Shown here piece after piece: positions 8,754-61,624 of a DNA stretch of 64,000 nt. The stretch's first letter is position 1. Each line of letters starts with the position of its first letter. This DNA comes from Eledone cirrhosa (taxonomy: Eukaryota), in contig OZ024756.1 in NCBI GenBank assembly GCA_964016885.1, positions 30,814,001-30,878,000 of the forward strand, read 5' to 3'. The position numbers and the translations under genes were made by a program. The notes under the pieces are model-generated. The model worked only from the letters and a program-made list of their open reading frames with translations. It did not search any database and had not been told where the DNA came from.

Positions 8754-8758
<5 letters not shown>

Positions 8759-9118
8759 CAATCCAATTATAAAAATGTTACTAAATAAAAAATAATTAAT
8801 TATTTGATCTTTTCTTAACTTATAAAGAAAAGTGTTTGTTATTTATTTGTATAACCGTATAGACTCTGTTTTTTTTTACGAATTTTGTATATAAGGTGTA
8901 CGACGTAATCTTAGCAAGTAAATTATATATATATATATATATATATATAATTTACTTGCTAAGATTACGTCGTACACCTTATATACAAAGTTCGTAAAAA
9001 GAACAGAGTCTATACGGTTATACAAATAAATAACAAACACTTTTCTTTATAAGGTAAGAAAAGATCAAATAATTAATTATCTTTTATTTAGTAACATTTT
9101 TATAATTGGATTGATAAT
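8754..9118. repeat. Inverted repeat, ~170-bp arms around a short (TA)n spacer
   Basis: ttatcaatccaattataaaaatg..gcaagtaaatt (TA)n aatttacttgc..catttttataattggattgataa, few mismatches. Confidence 0.92.
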
Positions 9119-13940: not shown

Positions 13941-14196
13941 CATTTAAATAAATCTAAGGTAAAAGACTAATTGTCAACAATATCTTTTGCATTTGCATTC
14001 TTTATTCTATGTCCGTACCTGCATTGTTTTGGCTTTATTATATATATACAAACGTTTATATATATATATATATATATATATTAATAAGAGGGATTCCAAC
14101 TTTGTCTGATTTACTCGTTTTATTTACAATCCTTTAAAATATATAATGGTATTATAATGAAATAGTATAATAGAATATTAAATTCTAAGTGTTAAT

Positions 14197-14235
14197 TGAA
14201 CAAGTACTTTCATGCTTTCGCAATCTTCAGGTTCA
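14197..14235 (-). ncRNA. Minimal hammerhead ribozyme (family A), left arm of palindrome
   Basis: Exact reverse complement of 14309-14347. Confidence 0.8.
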
Positions 14236-14308
14236 TAATATGTGGTGACAGTCAAGTTTGCAATTTTCAACAGTTGAAAATTGCAAACTTGACTGTCACC
14301 ACATATTA

Positions 14309-14347
14309 TGAACCTGAAGATTGCGAAAGCATGAAAGTACTTGTTCA
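14309..14347 (+). ncRNA. Minimal hammerhead ribozyme (family A), intact core
   Basis: tgaac CTGAAGA ttgc gaaa gcat GAA AGTACT T gttca; 5-bp stem I, GNRA-capped stem II, palindromic AGUACU stem III, CUU triplet. Confidence 0.82.
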
Positions 14348-14521
14348 ATTAACACTTAGAATTTAATATTCTATCATACTATTTCATTATAATACCATTA
14401 TATATTTTAAAGGATTGTAAATAAAACGAGTAAATCAGACAAAGTTGGAATTCCTCTTATTAATATAATCTTCTATACACAATCATACACACCCGTGTAT
14501 ATTTACCTATCTATATCTATC

Positions 14522-21372: not shown

Positions 21373-21771
21373 TGACCCCTTAGCCTTTGTCAAGGCAGAA
21401 TTCTAGGAGAAGGAAAACTCTGATATAACACCTGCAACCCTGATGGTATCCAATGATGTTGACTTGTTCTTCTTTTTGGTAAATATCATCTTGGTTAAGA
21501 GAGTGGGACTGGCTTTGTGCAGTGCCTTTGCTCACTATAAAAGCTTCACGGCACAGGCATTGCTTTATATCTGGAGATCTCTCTGCACTTGTCGTCACAT
21601 GGTACCATGGGCCCATCACTATGTGTCAGTAATTGTCACAAGTGTAGTGTTTGTACCAGAGTTTTCAAGTCGCTGGCTGGACTAAAAAGTCACACTCGTT
21701 CAGCGCATCGGTAGGGGTTCTCCTACATGGATATAAAGTAGTGGCCGTACTCGAAAACGAGTTGGCAGCCA

Positions 21772-21775
<4 letters not shown>
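21373..21775 (+). mobile_element. Non-autonomous bipartite RTE-derived element, copy 1
   Basis: 5' motif ggcagaattctaggagaaggaaaactctga typical of RTE 5' UTRs; 21637-21714 encodes [25 protein letters not shown]; short 3' UTR then (TA)n. Confidence 0.75.
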
Positions 21776-25779: not shown

Positions 25780-26090
25780 TAAGATGGTGTAGGACAGAAT
25801 AAAGGAGAGACACAAAAAAAAAACCTAGTCGCTGATGAGGTCACAGAATATGTGAGGAAAGAGCTTTGACACTATATAAACAACCATCCGGTTATCGAAC
25901 CAACCGACCAATGGTTGGTTCGATAACCGGATGGTTGTTTATATACTGTCAAAGCACTTTCGTCCCACGTTCCGTGACCTCAGTGATGAGAATTTTATCG
26001 GGAGCATGACTCTCCCAAATTATGACTATATCTCATTCAACACACGTTTCAGATAAGAAATCTTGCAAAACAAATTCCAAAACGATGTAT
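25780..26090 (+). mobile_element. Family B element with internal palindrome 25836-25982
   Basis: Shares aagatgg(t/c)gtaggacagaa.. and ..catgac(t/c)ctcccaaa..caacacacgtttcagata..aaacaaattc with 46190-46495; flanked by TA-rich tracts. Confidence 0.75.
25828..25870 (+). ncRNA. Hammerhead ribozyme (family B), intact core
   Basis: gtcg CTGATGA g gtcac agaatat gtgag GAA AGAGCT T tgac; homologous to 46244-46286. Confidence 0.7.
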
Positions 26091-26110: not shown

Positions 26111-26211
26111 AACGAAGGAGGTGTGATAAGGAACCAGATGGACCATAATGCACCAGAGTACTGAATACGAAACGACTTGAGCTCTGCCGTCGGGGTTAAA
26201 CTTTTTCCTAT
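26111..26211. mobile_element. Family C element, two inverted pieces joined at cgaaacg
   Basis: 26111-26168 is the minus-sense 3' end; 26168-26211 is plus-sense and starts at cGAAAcgacttgagc. Confidence 0.75.
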
Positions 26212-27121: not shown

Positions 27122-27360
27122 TTGAAAATTGCAAACTTGACTGTCACCACACATTATGAACCTGAAGATTGCGAAAGCCTGAAAGTACTTGTTCAATTAA
27201 CACTTAACATTTAATATTCTACCATACTATTTCATTATAATACCATTATAAATTTTAAAGAATTGTAAATAAAACGAGTAAATCAGACAAGGTGGAATTC
27301 CTTTTATTAATATAATCTTCTATACACAATCATACACACCCGTGTATATTTATCTATCTA
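27122..27360 (+). mobile_element. Family A element, second copy (HHR at 27157-27195)
   Basis: Highly similar to 14274-14515; tgaac CTGAAGA ttgc gaaa gcct GAA AGTACT T gttca; embedded in (TA)n. Confidence 0.85.
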
Positions 27361-27390
27361 TATATGTATATATATATATGTGTATATATA

Positions 27391-27591: not shown

Positions 27592-28254
27592 TACATACAT
27601 ATATATATACATATATATATATGTTGTTATACTTGGGGAGGGTCATATTGTTATAATATTGCCAGAAAAAATAACAGAACACACTCTGGGAAAAACAACA
27701 AGATAAAAACATTTACTATATACAACTTTATATATATATCTATACTTGCGTAAAGATATATATTTTTGCTTCAATTTATATATATATGTATATATATATA
27801 TTTATATATAGAGAGAGAGAGATAGAGAGAGAGAGGGGGGAGAGAGAGGGAGGAAGAGAGAAGAGAGCTCAACTTAAAGTTGATATACTAAAACACAAAT
27901 GACCAGTCTACCGAGCACTGGGATTGAAATTGATGCTTAACTCTGACGACTATGTTACCAAAAATCATTATTAAAAGATCACTGAGTGCAAATGTATTGG
28001 GTTATGCAAATAATTCAATTAATTCCATTTGATATATGAAATCAAAGGTGAACAGATTCAACAGATTTGCATAATTTTCGTTAACCAAAGAAGATAAGAT
28101 GATTTCAAATTTAAAATCGCAGACAAGAAGTTATTTAATAATAAATGATAATTGGAGGCTCGACGAAATTTTGAAAGCCAAACATTATCGCTTCGTTACA
28201 GACATTTTCATAGACGAGTGTGTAAACATATATATATATAAATACACACACACT

Positions 28255-30199: not shown

Positions 30200-34123
<3,924 letters not shown>

Positions 34124-34166
34124 TTTTAAATAAATAAATAAAAAATTTGCTGTACTTCCTATATGT

Positions 34167-34248
34167 GCCTTTGCCGCGGTTTCATGCTCCAGAATAAACG
34201 GAAAATCCAAGCGGATTTCCATTGAGAAGGGAGCAATCTTCAGAAGGC
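34167..34248 (-). ncRNA. Hammerhead ribozyme with one core lesion (U16.1->C), just upstream of the PLE
   Basis: Minus strand: gcctt CTGAAGA ttgctcc..long loop..ggagcat GAA ACCGCGG C A aaggc; perfect 5-bp stem I, 6-bp stem II, palindromic CCGCGG. Confidence 0.72.
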
Positions 34249-34344
34249 TCTTTTCCCTCGGAGAATATAAAATTCCCGAGTTCAAATCACAAACTGACGC
34301 CATACAAAACCATTCCCAAATGAGAGCGAATGATGAAAGAAATA

Positions 34345-34400
<56 letters not shown>

Positions 34401-34952: not shown

Positions 34953-35362
34953 CGGGAGAGATGACCCCTTAGCCTTTGTCAAGGCAGAATTCTAGGAGAA
35001 GGAAAACTCTGATATAACACCTGCAACCCTGATGGTATCCAATGATGTTGACTTGTTCTTCTTTTTGGTAAATATCATCTTGGTTAAGAGAGTGGGACTG
35101 GCTTTGTGCAGTGCCTTTGCTCACTATAAAAGCTTCACGGCACAGGCATTGCTTTATATCTGGAGATCTCTCTGCACTTGTCGTCACATGGTACCATGGG
35201 CCCAGCACTATGTGTCAATAATTGTCACAAGTGTAGTGTTTGTACCAGAGTTTTCAAGTCGCTGGCTGGACTAAAAAGTCACAGTCGTTCAGCGCATCGG
35301 TAGGGGTTCTCCTACATGGATATAAAGTAGTGGCCGTACTCGAAAACGAGTTGGCAGCCACC

Positions 35363-37801: not shown

Positions 37802-37847
37802 CGTATATATATATTTCTATAATATATATAATGCATATATATATTTG

Positions 37848-41758: not shown

Positions 41759-41923
41759 GGAAAATGTGTGAAATCGTTGGTATAGTTAGGTATATTTGAA
41801 AAAAGGAAACGAATGACTTCACTTATAGTCCTAAAAAATTTGCTTTAATTTCATAATATTATAATATTATAAAATTGAATCAAATTGTTTAGAACTACAA
41901 GCGAAGTCATTCTTTTCTTTTTT

Positions 41924-41970
<47 letters not shown>

Positions 41971-45883: not shown

Positions 45884-45967
<84 letters not shown>

Positions 45968-46189
45968 ATGCAAACCACTAGAGAAATACAAACCCTCCAT
46001 CTCAATTTTATTTTTGAAAAGCATAAGAACTGTGAAACCGGTAAAGTAAGTAAATAAATATTCTTAAAAGACTCCAGTTGCATTTTCAATTCCTGTTCCT
46101 AATATATATATATATATAACAAGCAGTGTAAGTCAACAGGTTGAAATTATCTTCGTTTATTCATTTTCGCTGCAATATATATTTCGCCA

Positions 46190-46490
46190 AACAAGATGGC
46201 GTAGGACAGAACAAAGGAGAGGCACAAAAACAAGGAATCCCCAGTCACTGAAAAGGTCACAGAATATGTGACGAAAGAACTTAGACAATATATAAACAAT
46301 CATCTGGTTGTGGAACCAACCAACCGGAAATTTATAAATTCCTAAATTTATAAATTTATTATAATAAATTGAAGTGAAAGCAACTGGTGCGTGTGTTACT
46401 TATTGGCAACATGACCCTCCCAAAGTATAACAATATCGGTTTTAACACACGTTTTCAGATAAAGAATCTTGCTAAACAAATTCGGAAACG

Positions 46491-46495
<5 letters not shown>
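46190..46495 (+). mobile_element. Family B element, most complete copy (HHR relic 46244-46286, CUGAAAA)
   Basis: gtca CTGAAAA g gtcac agaatat gtgac GAA AGAACT T agac; 3' part nearly identical to 57030-57185; ends in (TA)n. Confidence 0.8.
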
Positions 46496-46527
<32 letters not shown>

Positions 46528-46529
<2 letters not shown>

Positions 46530-46746
46530 AAAACGATCGACTTTCGTCAAATCGGACCGAGGTACAATGTTTCCGTTGGTCTTTCCAATTGCTAATACTA
46601 TCTATCGGTCGCAACTCCAGATAGAAGGAGCAACGTGAAATAAAGTGTCTTGCTCAAGGACATAACGCATCGCCTGGTCCAGGAATCGAACTCACAACCT
46701 TAGGATTGCGAATCGAATTCTCTAACCACTCAGCCACGCGCCTTCA
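46528..46746 (-). mobile_element. tRNA-derived SINE family 3 (family-2-like head, different body)
   Basis: Minus strand A box tggctgagtgg, B box gagttcgattcc; body gcgaccgatagatagtattagcaattggaaagaccaacggaaacattg..cctcggtccgatttgacgaaagtcgatcg. Confidence 0.8.
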
Positions 46747-46795
46747 GAATGTATATATAGATATGTATATATATATATATATATATATATGCATA

Positions 46796-47028
<233 letters not shown>

Positions 47029-51152: not shown

Positions 51153-51265
51153 AACGGCGATGAATTGTGTTGCGAGGTTTTTGATAAGAATTCGTGTGTC
51201 GAAACAAATATTGTTATACTTGTGGAGGGTCATATTGCCAGAAATAATAACAGAACACTCTCACT
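51153..51265 (-). mobile_element. Diverged family B-related 3' fragment (another at 27622-27690)
   Basis: cgtgtgtcgaaacaaatattgttatacttgtggagggtcatattgcca is a diverged reverse complement of tggcaacatgaccctcccaaagtataacaatatcggtttcaacacacg. Confidence 0.6.
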
Positions 51266-51389
51266 GTTTGGTTGGTCTTCGCTTCTCTATCTTTTATATC
51301 TCCATAGTTAATTCATTTTGCCATCAATGTTTATCATTGACTGACCAACGGTAAAAAGTACAGATATAAATACATATATATATATAGTC

Positions 51390-51433
51390 TAACAAAGTTC
51401 TTTCGTTGCACATCTGCAACATCATCAGTGGTA
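51390..51433 (-). ncRNA. Hammerhead ribozyme, intact core
   Basis: Minus strand: tacca CTGATGA t gttgca gatg tgcaac GAA AGAACT T tgtta; perfect 6-bp stem II; within an ~85-bp insert between (TA)n tracts. Confidence 0.72.
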
Positions 51434-51469
51434 CTATTATGTTTCCTCCTGTTGTATTGTATGTCTACG

Positions 51470-51524
<55 letters not shown>

Positions 51525-51590: not shown

Positions 51591-53869
51591 TGTGTGTGTG
51601 TGTGTGTGTGTCTGTGTGTGTGTGTAAGTAAGCTAGGGTGAGAAATAAAATTCTAATTTTATATATATATATATATATATGCAAGTATGTTTGTATGCAT
51701 GTAGGTATGTATGTGCTTAAGTATGTATGGATGTGTAAAAACAACTTAGGCGCATTTTACATCGAGCAAATTTCATTCGCAATACATGGTTCGACCCTTG
51801 CCCACTGTTTATCACGTCCTTTTATCCTTCCAGGTTAGATAAAATAAAGTTCCATTGAACTACTAAAGATCGTTTTAATTGATTTCCGCTCTCCATACAC
51901 TGCTGGTCTTGTGCCTAAAGTTAAAACCATGATTTAATTAAAATCAAAATATCGACGGTGGTGGGAATGCCCCGAAGAAAATGAGAAGAGGAAAAAAACA
52001 CACAGCAAAACCCCCCAAAAAAAGCAGTGATTTAAATTTCAAATTAACAGCCATGTCTTAGTTTAATATTCATTAATTGAAAAGTGCTAAATGTTGTAAA
52101 CTTTAAATTTAATAGACTTCCATCGAAATGAACAAATCAAAATAAAAAAAAAACTAAAGAACAACAAAAAAATCTAAAAAAGAGATAGAAAAAGAAGCCC
52201 ATATATGTTTGCCTGTCGGGTTTAATAAATGGTGCGTAATGTATGAAACTTCTAGTAAAATTATAAAATCTTATTGGAGAGACTGTTCAAACACGTATTC
52301 AAATAACACCTACGTAATATGACATTTTTTTAATGATGATTAGATAAAAATATAATTAAATGATAAAGAAGGAAAAATAAAACTTCAAGCCAGAAGTATC
52401 TTGTTCGTGAATTCACACCATTGTAGTTACTGCGGTTATAGAAAATGTATACGCTTCATTACATGTGGGTTTTCATGAAAGACTGGAGACTCTACCCTAA
52501 AAACATCTGGGATATCTCAAACTTGTAGGTGACCCGCTAATCTTACATATACATGTCCGCCGTAAATATCCATTTATATCTTTTTTATTATTATTTTCAT
52601 TAGACACCCGACTATGTTGTATTTGAAAAGACTTTTGCCTGGAAAACTCCCAAAGCTCCATTTAGTTTTGGGCCTTTTTTTTTTTTAGTGTTGTCTTTCC
52701 GTTGTGATTGTTATTTTACGTATTCATTTATTCATTTATATATGTATATACTTTTATTTAGAGTGTTTATCGGTAAAGAAGACGAGAATATTCTGTATAT
52801 ATCACACACACAGAGTTTGTTTCTGTTCTGATTCCTCTTTTTTAGAAAAATATTCTCTTCATTTGAGAAATCTTACACGAACTGCTTTAGTAAAATGTGC
52901 CAAAAATCTTGTTTGTTTCAATTCATTGTTGAATAGGAAAACCTATTTTCTCGCTATAAATTAGATTCGTTGCTTTATTTAGGATGTCCTCCTAGTTATT
53001 TATTTCCATTACTACCACCAGTTCCTCCAACTCCACACACATACTCCCATTACCACCAGTTCCTCCACCTCTACACACACATACATACATTCTTCATCTA
53101 TTTATTTTTCTATAAGTGTATTGAATTCGTATTGTTTAGTATGTCTTTTTGCCCCAAAGCTCTTCATTGTAGAGGAATGTGAACAAAAACAAATGAAATC
53201 CAAAAATGAAAATGTAAAAAAAAAAAGGATATTATAAATAAATATACACAAAATCTGCCAAAATCTGCTCAGATTTATTCCCAAAAAGGCCTGTTGATTT
53301 CACATACGTTGATGAGTGGAACAAGCAATAAAAACACAAACAAAAGACAAGAATATGATGATATTCAATTTACCGTTAATTACCCGCCATTTCCCAGTGG
53401 GAAATAATCTATAACGATTAAAGCCGGTGGATATTGATGCTCATTTGAATTACCTAATTATTCCAGCTTTTCATTCTTCTTTATATCTATATTGTATTAT
53501 TCATTTATTTATTTATATCTATTTGCTTTTCTTTATGCTCTTATTTCGTTATAGAAAATATGATTCATATCAAAAACCTTTAAATTGTATATTATAAACA
53601 CACATAATTCAACCAAAGTAATTTCAGAATAAATCGAATTAAAGATATTCTCAAGAAAATTAATGCATCTGGCAAGGCATTTCTGAATATATTTATCTTC
53701 ATATAGTGGTTAATAGGACGGAATCAACCTGGAATGAAGTGTGTTCCCTGCAGGACGTTGACAAAGACGAACTTCCTTTAAATACGGAATGCAATGAAAT
53801 GAAAACAACAGCCCTCTCGTGAAATTAATGAACAACTAATGGGCTGAGTATTCCCCCAGACTCGTCTTA

Positions 53870-54725
53870 TTTTAATATAATTCTCGGGAGAGATTTAGAG
53901 GGACACGTTGTATGATAAAGTTGGCCTTTTCAAATACACAAATAGTCAACTTTCAGTTACAGTATATAGCTGAGAATTCCACGCTCGTCTTACCATAACA
54001 TAATTCTCGGGGGAGATTTAGAGTGAAACATAGTGTGAAAGATTGGCCTTTAGTGCGACATATTGTATGGTAAGGTTGGCCTATAAAGTAACAGATTGTG
54101 TGATGAAGCTGTCCTTTAGAGTAACATATTGTGTGAGAAGGTTGGTATTTAGTCTGACATACTGTGTGATAAGATTGGCCTGTAGAGTGACAGATTGTGT
54201 GACAAGATGGTCTGTAGAATGACATACTGTGTGACAAGGTTGGTCTGTAGAGTGACATGCTATGTGACAAGGTTGGGCTTTAGAGTGACACATTGTGTGA
54301 AAATATTGGTCTGTAGAGTGACATACTGTGTGACAAGGTTGCCCTGTAGAGTGATATATTGTGTGACAAGGTTGGGCTTTAGAGTGACATACTGTGTGAC
54401 AAGGTAGGCCTGTAGAGTGATATACTGTGTGACAAGGTAGGCCTGTAGAGTGACATACTGTGTGACAAGGTTGGTCTGTAGAGTGACATACTGTGATACA
54501 AGGTTGGTTTGTAGAGTGACATACAGTGTGACAAGGCTGATCTGTAGAGTGAGATACTGTGTGACAAGTTTGGGCTTTAGAGTGCCATCCTGTGTGACAA
54601 GGTAGGCCCCTAGAGTGACATACAGTGTAACACGTTTGGCCTGTAGTGTGACACACTGTTTGACACGGTTATTATTTTGAAGTACACACTGTATGAGAAG
54701 GTTTGGCTTTAAAGTAACAGATACA
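53870..54725. repeat. 33-bp diverged minisatellite (gtgacatactgtgtgacaaggttggtctgtaga), ~22-25 units
   Basis: 11-aa periodicity (CHTVCHSTDQP) in overlapping ORFs; units decay toward the edges. Confidence 0.92.
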
Positions 54726-56362
54726 GTCAACTTTCATTTATAGTGTATGACAGAGTGTTCCGCCGGCAAATGTATCCTTGACGTGTTTCTCACGAAGATT
54801 CAGTTATCCACAGACTGTAGCAAGGCCGACCGATTGATTTAAAGGTTTAGCCTACAAGGCGGTTTTCAATAGAATTTATATCTATACTATTCCATTCACA
54901 ATGCTTGGATCAACCCGAGGTCATGGTAAATGACACTTGTCTAAGATGCTACGAAATGGCATCTTATGCAGAATCATAAGATTTCGAAGCGGACTTCTTT
55001 TCCATTCAGATATGCTACGTCCACAAATATGAATCACTTTAATTTGGAGATCAAATATACAGAATAGGATGTTCCTCACATTACACAAAACAATTCCACA
55101 GAAACATTACACATGCAAGTGAAATGATATGTTACCAATAGCACCAAATAACAGTCACCGTGTATTGATATGCTGTATTAACTATACTGGTGGGGATTCT
55201 AATGTGCCTAGTAGTAATTGGGGCTATCAACAAGTTAATATACATGAATGAGAGTGGTAGCTTCGCAGAATTGATAAATTCTAGGATTAAATGCCATTTG
55301 TTCTGGTTATTTATGTTCTGAGTTCAAATCTCAAAGGCTGAAGTTTACCTTACATCATTCTGGAGTTAATAAAATCAAGAAACATTTAAGGACTGGGTTG
55401 ATTTAATATACTTTGTCTTCCCCTTAAAATGTGTTGATGTTCTACCTAAATTAGAAATAAATATAGAGGAATATATCAGAGCCAACAATGGAGACATGAA
55501 TGTAGTAGCAACACTTAGTAGAAATAACAGTTAGATCACCGTTACTCTATTAATCTATCATCTGTTCCAGCCAAAAGCCTAAGGCCATGTTGGAGCACCG
55601 ACATTGTTATAACAAAAATTAGATGGATTATATCTGCATTTCAAATGTCCAGAGTACTAAGATATCATATATTTTATGAAGCAATATTTTACTTGACAAG
55701 AAAAATGGCTACGGTTAATCCAATCTGAGAAACCAACCAGAAATACATATCTAATCATTTAGTGGAATATTACATTTTATTAACTTGACAACGCCGGCAC
55801 GTTCAGCTATATTTAAAGAAATGATAAACCGCAAATGGGTTTGTTTGTGTTTGTAAAGGTATTAGTAGCTTAAATGGAGAGAATGACTAAATAATTCTAA
55901 ACGCAGCTGCACGTTAATTATATTCACAAATCCCTGATTAAATTAATATATATAGCTAATGTTGGGAATACTAATGGCGTATATTTGTTTAAAATAGATC
56001 TGTTAATAGGATCACCGTATAGCCGCATAGTATACTACGCTGCATAATATTATATACGCTATTTTGGCTCAAAGGTGGATCACATACCGTAATAAGCAAA
56101 TTTGTTTTGTTGTTATTGATTTTCAGTTTCCTTGTCACCCAGATCTGTGCAAATATTTTCTGATGATAATTGTAGATGAGAGTATCATGGTTTTGTTTCC
56201 TTTTTCTTTTTAAAATAGTGTATGTCTAGTCGTCGTTTCTTTTATATTGCAATTCGCCGACCATAAAATCATTAGAACTAGGTTACTGATATGCCTATTA
56301 CTATTTCTGAGGATGGTATTGGTGTGAGACTGTTTATATCTCAGTACAGAACGAATACCGCA

Positions 56363-56921
<559 letters not shown>

Positions 56922-56924
<3 letters not shown>

Positions 56925-57185
56925 GTTATACTTTGGGAGGGTCACGTTGCCAATAAGAAACACATGCACCAGTTGCTTTCACTTCAATTTATTATAAATT
57001 AAATTTATAAATTTAGGAATTTATAAGTTCCTAAATTTATAAATTTAATTTATAATAAATTGAAGTGAAAGCAACTGGTGCGTGTGTTTCTTATTGGCAA
57101 CATGACCCTCCCAAAGTATAACAATATCGGTTTCAACACACGTTTTCAGATAAAGAATCTTGCTAAACAAATTCAGAAACGAAAT
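56922..57185 (+). mobile_element. Family B 3' fragment with fold-back palindrome 56922-57125
   Basis: ~95-bp inverted arms centred on ggaatttataagttcc (57016-57031); right arm matches 46340-46495. Confidence 0.8.
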
Positions 57186-57206: not shown

Positions 57207-57289
<83 letters not shown>

Positions 57290-57344
57290 ATTCATTATAT
57301 ATATATATATATTTCGTTTCTGAATTTGTGAATATATATGTATA

Positions 57345-61340: not shown

Positions 61341-61620
61341 ATATTGAAAAAGAGAAGAATAACATGGTCAACAGTACAAAAAAGGGTTTTATTTACAGTC
61401 TGACAATTGTTTCACTGATTAAGTTATTTAAAATTGAGTGGCACTGCTTCAAGTGTTCAGCAATTTTTAGACAATTTAATCAGTGAAACAATTGTCAGAC
61501 TGTAAATAAAACCCTTTTTTGTACTGTTGACCATGTTTTTCTTCACTTTTTCAATATATATATTGAAAAAGTGAAGAATAACATGGTCAACAGTACAAAA
61601 AAGGGTTTTATTTACAGTCT

Positions 61621-61624
<4 letters not shown>
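61341..61624. mobile_element. Three-armed palindromic insert containing an HHR 3' half (GAAACAATTGTC, 61485-61496)
   Basis: Arms 61341-61436, 61461-61557 and 61560-61624 alternate in orientation; ends in (TA)n. Confidence 0.8.

Follow-up and report, generated by a model that had tools for sequence, protein, structure and literature searches.

Endonuclease-bearing Penelope-like elements are described with an inverted, 5′-truncated copy and an optional tail of 30–40 bp (PMC8557442), and palindromes at the junctions of inverted Penelope copies have been interpreted as products of self-priming (PMC3846280). How the tandem and inverted structures of Penelope-like elements form is named as an open question in PMC8557442, and an in vitro study (PMC11167929) leaves the later steps of insertion unvalidated. 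Members of the Hydra clade target (TA)n and have RWK and DKT motifs and a CxCX5C linker with no CCHH; a supplementary table places their canonical type I hammerhead about 100–210 nt from the 3′ end (PMC8557442). In a different setting, the 5′ junctions of R2 insertions, the cDNA is described as priming from its 3′ end, either on its own sequence or on neighbouring target DNA (PMC11371274).

The DNA analysed here, which we call the window, is a 64,000-nt stretch of microsatellite-rich, A+T-rich sequence from Eledone cirrhosa (contig OZ024756.1). Positions 56922–57125 form a 204-bp palindrome centred on 57023|57024. Of its 102 pairs 99 match, and the three mismatched ones (57020/57027, 56965/57082 and 56945/57102) are all C/T-type transitions. 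We aligned each arm pairwise with the complete copy of the same repeat, family B, near 46 kb. The right arm (57024–57183, plus strand) is a 5′-truncated family B copy corresponding to 46335–46492, with four substitutions and one 2-nt insertion; the left arm (56922–57023, minus strand) is the reverse complement of 46335–46434, with three substitutions and the identical 2-nt insertion. One substitution relative to the 46-kb copy is, like the insertion, common to both arms. Only the long right arm has a 58-nt tail (57126–57183), which (TA)n then adjoins. The outer end of the short, tail-less left arm, equivalent to 46434, is one of six TAT sites in the stretch and falls within 1–3 nt of the 3′ end of a stand-alone copy at 27624. 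A little further downstream, at 57312–57329, 18 nt on the minus strand repeat the 3′ end of family B in inverted orientation and, in sequence match and allele comparison, carry the allele of the 57-kb long arm.

Since both arms align to the 46-kb copy starting at 46335, the axis maps to 46334|46335, which is the centre of a perfect 12-mer, AATTTATAAATT (46329–46340). A first-pass annotation had described the palindrome as about 200 bp long and centred on native sequence, pairing a stem-loop 17-mer at 46326–46342 with a 16-mer at 57016–57031; the palindrome, its centring and these coordinates are confirmed. Its further statement, that everything upstream had been replaced by an inverted copy of the downstream sequence, holds for 102 nt only, beyond which the sequence is a mirror copy of other local sequence. 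The 16-mer at the palindrome centre has one private A>G at 57027 and is missing an A that is present in the native 17-mer, which means that either the outer G:C pairs were not part of a priming stem or the A is private to the 46-kb copy. Of 300 positions in the unit, three lie at the centre of a perfect palindrome whose arms reach 6 bp or more, and nine at the centre of a stem of 5 bp or longer with a loop of 0–6 nt, which puts the chance of a coincidence at about 1–3% for this one case, chosen post hoc.

The 12-mer belongs to an A+T block (46328–46370) that repeat and symmetry analysis resolves into four copies of an 8-bp unit (46328–46359) and a palindrome of 18 bp, so arranged that a stretch of 28 nt contains five axes of symmetry (46334.5, 46342.5, 46350.5, 46354.5 and 46361.5). 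As DNA the 17-mer barely folds (−0.5 kcal/mol, z = 0.16; 79 of 200 shuffles equally good), its RNA hairpins are weak as well (−0.5 and −1.4 kcal/mol for the two strands), and the dominant fold in context is another hairpin of 13 bp (46328–46357, −8.5 kcal/mol) with its axis at 46342|46343. For cDNA ends at 46328–46336 the best fold-back register leads to an axis at 46342.5 (−8.1 to −1.1 kcal/mol), and folding back at the observed axis is unfavourable, at +0.5 to +3.7 kcal/mol; the register 8 nt away (−7 to −9 kcal/mol) is favoured by 7–9 kcal/mol, and the 57-kb alleles agree. A 16-mer without the extra A, were the ancestor so, would reach −2.6 kcal/mol and still be weaker than the competing hairpin. 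The self-dimer of two identical strands at the observed axis is worth −11.3 kcal/mol, the third of three stacked palindromes, the other two axes dimerising more stably (−14.5 and −13.3 kcal/mol).

Given that fold-back is weaker at the observed axis than in the register 8 nt away, the inversion falls on self-complementary sequence but not where the most stable hairpin would form. The native hairpin of the first-pass annotation thus survives as a self-complementary 12-mer, and the idea that hairpin stability sets the axis is not supported. The locus had also been put forward as an internal control for a snap-back model. Two identical cDNAs, too, anneal only at self-complementary sites, and therefore a model of two annealing cDNAs predicts the same axis as snap-back does; the axis is not a discriminating control.

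The complete unit of family B is about 300 bp long, lies on the plus strand at 46186–46492 between TA-rich flanks, and agrees in its ends with the 25.8-kb and 51-kb copies. About 11 extra bases (46186–46196) open the 46-kb copy, and the first five of them mirror its own 3′ end, as the 18-nt mirror at 57312 does. Using a scored descriptor scan of both strands, with shuffles as control, we found a plus-strand type I hammerhead motif at 46244–46287, with a degenerate core (46248–46254), stem II (46256–46272), GAAA (46273–46276) and a predicted cut after 46282. It scores 25.8, a value reached by 2 of 150 shuffles, and the motifs of the 25.8-kb copy and the 51-kb relative score 33.1 and 31.8. Stems II and III are paired in 23 of 24 cells with two double changes over the three copies, although three sequences give this comparison little power (66 of 500 shuffles as high). 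The motif (46248–46282) lies about 50 nt upstream of the inversion axis, so that the axis is not the ribozyme, just as the first-pass annotation held in calling its hairpin a non-ribozyme one. The plus-strand motif in three copies also makes the palindrome head-to-head, truncated about 50 nt downstream of the predicted ribozyme, and this is the polarity that had been assumed. A minus-strand hammerhead-like motif (57149–57120) that would make the palindrome tail-to-tail was rejected, with a score of 19.9 (6 of 150 shuffles as high) against a far better plus-strand motif in three copies. No Rfam hammerhead model matched family B at gathering or relaxed thresholds, and the sub-threshold matches that did appear were to hairpin-driven microRNA models; the best of them, at 57.1 bits against a gathering score of 85, is accounted for by the long hairpin, and we discarded a microRNA precursor.

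We considered several other classes for family B. An autonomous endonuclease-bearing Penelope-like element, with a reverse transcriptase and GIY-YIG reading frame, does not fit family B, which is about 300 bp long and in which the longest frame free of stops, on the antisense strand, spans 73 aa; that frame has no significant Pfam match, a search of representative proteins returned two unannotated, repetitive multi-stretch matches, and synonymous and non-synonymous counts clearly favour no frame. Non-LTR retrozymes, which are tandem hammerhead monomers, do not fit either, the B copies being dispersed and 45900–46900 containing no long-period tandem repeat. A MITE or foldback DNA transposon is opposed by an end match of 5 nt that occurs in the 46-kb copy only and is absent from the 25.8- and 51-kb copies. 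The features expected of a pLTR derivative are present: a sense type I hammerhead motif, a predicted ribozyme, upstream of the 3′ end, a head-to-head 5′-truncated inverted copy, and a tail on one arm. Insertion into (TA)n, a Hydra-clade trait, is seen in that the long 3′ ends abut (TA)n in all four copies having such an end. Family B is a non-coding repeat with a predicted hammerhead ribozyme, likely inserted by a Penelope-like route. A contig collection that holds no eukaryotic genomes yielded no further copies.

Upstream of the short arm, positions 56741–56924 are a 184-bp mirror copy, at 97.3% identity, of 56363–56546. The mirror lies opposite its original across a (TA)n tract and is joined to the short arm through a 3-nt overlap (56922–56924); the original continues leftwards into unique non-TA sequence, and the 184-bp repeat has no further copy in the window. 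A 15-nt marker interrupts the (TA)n. It occurs exactly at only two places, in direct orientation at 56633–56647 and 57287–57301 on the plus strand, and with one mismatch in a mirrored copy on the minus strand at 56696–56710; the sole other match in the window is a one-mismatch occurrence at 37825. The two direct copies bracket the flank mirror and the B palindrome, as a target duplication would.

A mirrored marker implies that a local template was used to copy the target tract along with 184 bp of flank, and together with the bracketing it makes the adjacent 184-bp repeat likely to be a fold-back copy of the local flank, similar in age to the B palindrome. DNA-templated fold-back at the 57-kb locus is therefore likely, and the mirrored flank marker is better evidence for it than the hairpin, indeed the best at the locus. 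It is this part of the snap-back model that stands, without the stability-driven axis and without the status of a control. The arms of the two mirrors differ at 5 of 184 positions (flank) and 3 of 102 (B), and this similarity in divergence (Fisher p = 1, with little power at these lengths) is compatible with both mirrors having arisen in one event. The history may also have had two steps, in which the flank mirror arose before B came to lie at the tract's edge. We rejected a separate hammerhead family as the identity of the 184-bp repeat (score 15.9, with 39 of 150 shuffles as high, and no other copy); it may be an old decayed element.

A diverged family B copy (about 82–84% identity) with an intact hammerhead core at 25832 lies on the plus strand at 25781–26085 and contains an internal inversion, 25912–25986, which duplicates sequence of the 5′ side where the 46-kb copy has about 46326–46399. 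In the coordinates of the 46-kb copy, its sequence is collinear up to 46325, where it reverses through a 4-bp arm and a 1-nt spacer; it then follows 46322 back to 46245 and resumes at about 46400. Its turn, at the equivalent of 46322–46326, is about 10 nt upstream of the 57-kb axis, at the edge of the A+T block. Within the window, the preference of inverted B copies for the hairpin that the first-pass annotation had anticipated thus applies to one of two, the 57-kb copy and not the 25.8-kb copy. A distant relative on the minus strand (51161–51470, hammerhead core at 51428) has a middle region that cannot be aligned with the 46-kb copy, and a truncated minus-strand relative (27624–27686), for which we found no partner arm, ends at the short tail-less 3′ end before (TA)n. 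The A+T block is intact in the 46-kb copy only, being replaced in the 25.8-kb copy and unalignable in the 51-kb relative; the notion that the block is an insertion relative to the latter gains no support from the alignment, in which the middle regions do no better than shuffles (49 of 500 as good).

Reading the spacers of the 12 inverted repeats in the window from the sequence, we find three centred on (TA)n, two on A+T-only palindromes, two on a 1-nt spacer and five on non-palindromic spacers. Families A, D, F and G likewise show one long and one short arm. In family D, each of the four copies ends on one side at a common internal site and on the other at a common long end (26211, 36511, 42797, 50020; 26112, 36691, 42593, 50168), and in the copy at 26112–26211 the inverted arms do not overlap and are separated by a 20-nt gap, which could reflect twin priming or a palindrome that lost its centre. 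Family A (14082–14516 and 27122–27363) has a clear Hydra-style hammerhead (score 36.5) and a head-to-head palindrome with a 1-nt spacer, and its second copy starts no more than 2 nt from the axis of that palindrome. At 41796–41926 a palindrome is centred on an 18-bp A+T-only palindrome, like that of family B, and has no intact copy in the window. Two overlapping palindromes occupy 61345–61623, the second being a 60-nt mirror, tail-to-tail across (TA)5, that stops close to a predicted hammerhead cleavage site, and a 167-bp mirror centred on (TA)n at 8756–9116, for which the window contains no further copy, may represent one more case of flank copied by fold-back. Other hammerhead-like motifs, with descriptor scores of 28–38, lie at 1073 (−), 13908 (+), 30397 (−), 45687 (+) and 28385 (−). 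The window also contains a 400-bp direct repeat (21374–21773 and 34963–35362, 99.3% identity, 13.6 kb apart) and a diverged tandem array of units of about 33 bp (53843–54727).

The explanation that we favour, and to which we give about an even chance, is that the palindrome is a head-to-head, 5′-truncated repeat copy produced by Penelope-like target-primed insertion into (TA)n, the cDNA end having folded back on the A+T 12-mer and copied itself. Starting from what the locus itself displays, namely the position of the axis, the polarity of the arms, the 58-nt tail, the (TA)n flank, and two direct and one mirrored copies of the marker, we infer the following steps. A (TA)n-targeting Penelope-like protein would have nicked both strands, on either side of the marker, and a cDNA would have started at the long 3′ end and extended over 160 nt, as far as the final repeat of the A+T array. 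Its end would then have primed on itself through a few paired bases, with no stable hairpin, the array behaving like (TA)n, that is, as a self-complementary simple repeat rather than a structured hairpin. The other end of the target, a top-strand (TA)n overhang, would have folded back too and copied about 230 nt of its own flank, and the two new ends would have been joined through the 3-nt overlap.

Several observations speak for cDNA fold-back. The axis sits on a native perfect 12-mer, one of the 3 such axes in 300 positions; the mirrored piece of the target tract needs a local template; and among the window's 12 inverted repeats 3 have (TA)n at their centre and another 2 an A+T-only palindrome. 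The substitution and 2-nt insertion shared by the arms, the head-to-head orientation given by the plus-strand hammerhead of three copies, and the compatibility of flank and B divergence with one event all agree with it, and precedents exist in the R2 5′ junctions (PMC11371274) and the inverted Penelope junctions (PMC3846280). Against it count the energetic disfavour of the observed axis relative to the register 8 nt away, the second inverted B copy, at 25.8 kb, which is centred elsewhere, and a comparison within the window that yielded no autonomous partner with DNA in common with family B. The short arm, moreover, stops where the independent copy at 27624 stops, which a self-copying end need not do; this is a weak objection because the shared end is one of six TAT sites.

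A possible, less probable explanation is that two cDNAs, one per nicked strand and begun at the start sites 46492 (long) and 46434 (short), met head-to-head and annealed at the 12-mer, with no need for a cDNA hairpin. In its favour are the coincidence of the short-arm end with the end of copy 27624, the four family D copies, each with one end at the same internal site and one at the long end, and the non-overlapping inverted arms, 20 nt apart, of the D copy at 26112–26211. The self-dimer at the axis is stable (−11.3 kcal/mol), and a Poseidon protein nicks both strands, extends each of them and initiates at two sites that define the tail (PMC11167929). On the other side, other axes give stabler dimers (−14.5 and −13.3 kcal/mol), the short end of family B, one of six TAT sites, could have been chosen by microhomology, that of family D is the first TAT after a GC-rich part and could be explained by joining to (TA)n, and the non-overlapping D copy could be a palindrome minus its centre. 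The mirrored flank, besides, would still require DNA fold-back at the locus. A broader version, which we regard as speculative and somewhat doubtful, is that (TA)n-targeting Penelope-like elements copy their template twice, each nicked strand priming one cDNA at one of two fixed sites, the cDNAs annealing at any shared self-complementary site, and that free (TA)n ends also fold back and duplicate host flank. If this were true, axes, short ends and tract markers across the genome would amount to a natural experiment on how inverted structures form, and the elements would be a source of near-perfect double-stranded RNA that ADAR edits.

Host repair or replication after insertion, the retroelement enzyme not being involved, seems improbable to us. 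It would have begun with a break or stall at the A+T palindrome, followed by fold-back synthesis and microhomology joining in one or two steps. The mirrored flank of local DNA and the junction with a 3-nt overlap are what it would leave behind, and further (TA)n-centred mirrors lie at 8756–9116 and 61494–61623. The 25.8-kb inversion swaps about 75 nt for about 75 nt, like the in-register template switches of Loytynoja and Goldman, which reportedly replace like length with like length. Yet the long arm keeps the exact 3′ end of the family and the short arm a second family end, and a search of 54.5–60 kb for the missing 5′ half of B found it absent. The long-arm and short-arm pattern, furthermore, is repeated in families A, D, F and G and fits the published Penelope architecture (PMC8557442).

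We consider it very unlikely that reverse transcription was self-primed by an antisense transcript of the element that terminated at the A+T palindrome and then folded back. Such RNA self-priming has been put forward for Adineta Penelope elements, to account for head-to-head junction palindromes (PMC3846280), but the RNA hairpin here is weak (−0.5 and −1.4 kcal/mol), the mirrored target marker would be left unexplained, and priming in vitro is on nicked DNA (PMC11167929). A fold-back artefact of sequencing or assembly is scarcely credible even in a microsatellite-rich region with many palindromes, because the arms differ by three mismatches that are all transitions, the flank mirror by five changes, and the arms are finite and end at family-defined sites.

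How, then, does the 57-kb palindrome compare with the systems described before? L1 twin priming, as Ostertag and Kazazian are said to have described it, has both nicked strands prime and the 5′ inversion joined by microhomology. Its arms do not overlap, whereas both arms of the family B palindrome span the same 100 nt. Our literature search, with few subscription papers in reach, returned nothing on twin priming in Penelope-like elements, nor on such octopus palindromes or inverted flank duplication at Penelope-like insertions. The non-LTR retrozymes (bioRxiv 10.64898/2026.07.22.740005) are, like family B, short non-coding units with a type I hammerhead and are thought to derive from Penelope pLTRs, but they are defined as tandem arrays, and family B consists of dispersed monomers and inversions. 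Snap-back at R2 5′ junctions has in common with the fold-back proposed here the use of a new DNA 3′ end as primer, on its own strand or on target DNA close by, before joining; R2 is another class of retroelement, and its junctions come from engineered insertions in cultured cells (PMC11371274).

The Hydra clade has the (TA)n target and type I hammerhead in common with family B (PMC8557442), which, being non-coding, has no reading frame in which the clade's protein motifs could be sought. A decayed Penelope-like element with reverse transcriptase and endonuclease does lie on the minus strand at 31800–34400 and, compared by eye with the supplement of PMC8557442, looks Hydra-like in its RWR, DKT, GSSDSAQ and LYRDD motifs; stops, frameshifts and a microsatellite interrupt its frame, and weak hammerhead-like motifs lie near both ends. 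Its reverse transcriptase stretch has 3 unnamed homologous proteins among 290 candidates, at 36–50% identity, and two of the three, when rescanned, had no Pfam match; the three point to no particular clade. Family B shares no significant DNA with this remnant (about 31.8–34.4 kb; best match 18 nt, E = 0.036) and, by eye, shows no likeness to the first part of the Hydra-1_Obim consensus or to its hammerhead row.

The closest counterparts are the inverted-pLTR Penelope insertions (PMC3846280; PMC8557442), which have in common with family B the head-to-head 5′-truncated copy, the junction palindrome, the tail on one arm, the A+T-rich target and a sense hammerhead near the 3′ end. Family B differs from them, as far as these sources describe them, in having no reverse transcriptase or endonuclease frame, in a tail of 58 nt as against 30–40, in an internal axis that lies downstream of the ribozyme within a simple-repeat block, and in the mirrored target flank alongside. 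A single locus cannot settle the mechanism and would, alone, be a worked example of a known phenomenon; what makes the 57-kb locus informative is that it displays an axis that can be read against an intact copy, two alternative 3′ ends, and marker interruptions of the (TA)n that reveal both target duplication and fold-back of host flank. Should such compound events occur often, Penelope-like elements would contribute inverted host-DNA duplications as well as tight hairpin transcripts, and hairpins of this kind have been linked to heavy A-to-I editing (PMC5625713). Junction palindromes and self-priming in Penelope-like elements are already published; what is new here is the (TA)n marker, which both brackets the insertion and is mirrored beside it.
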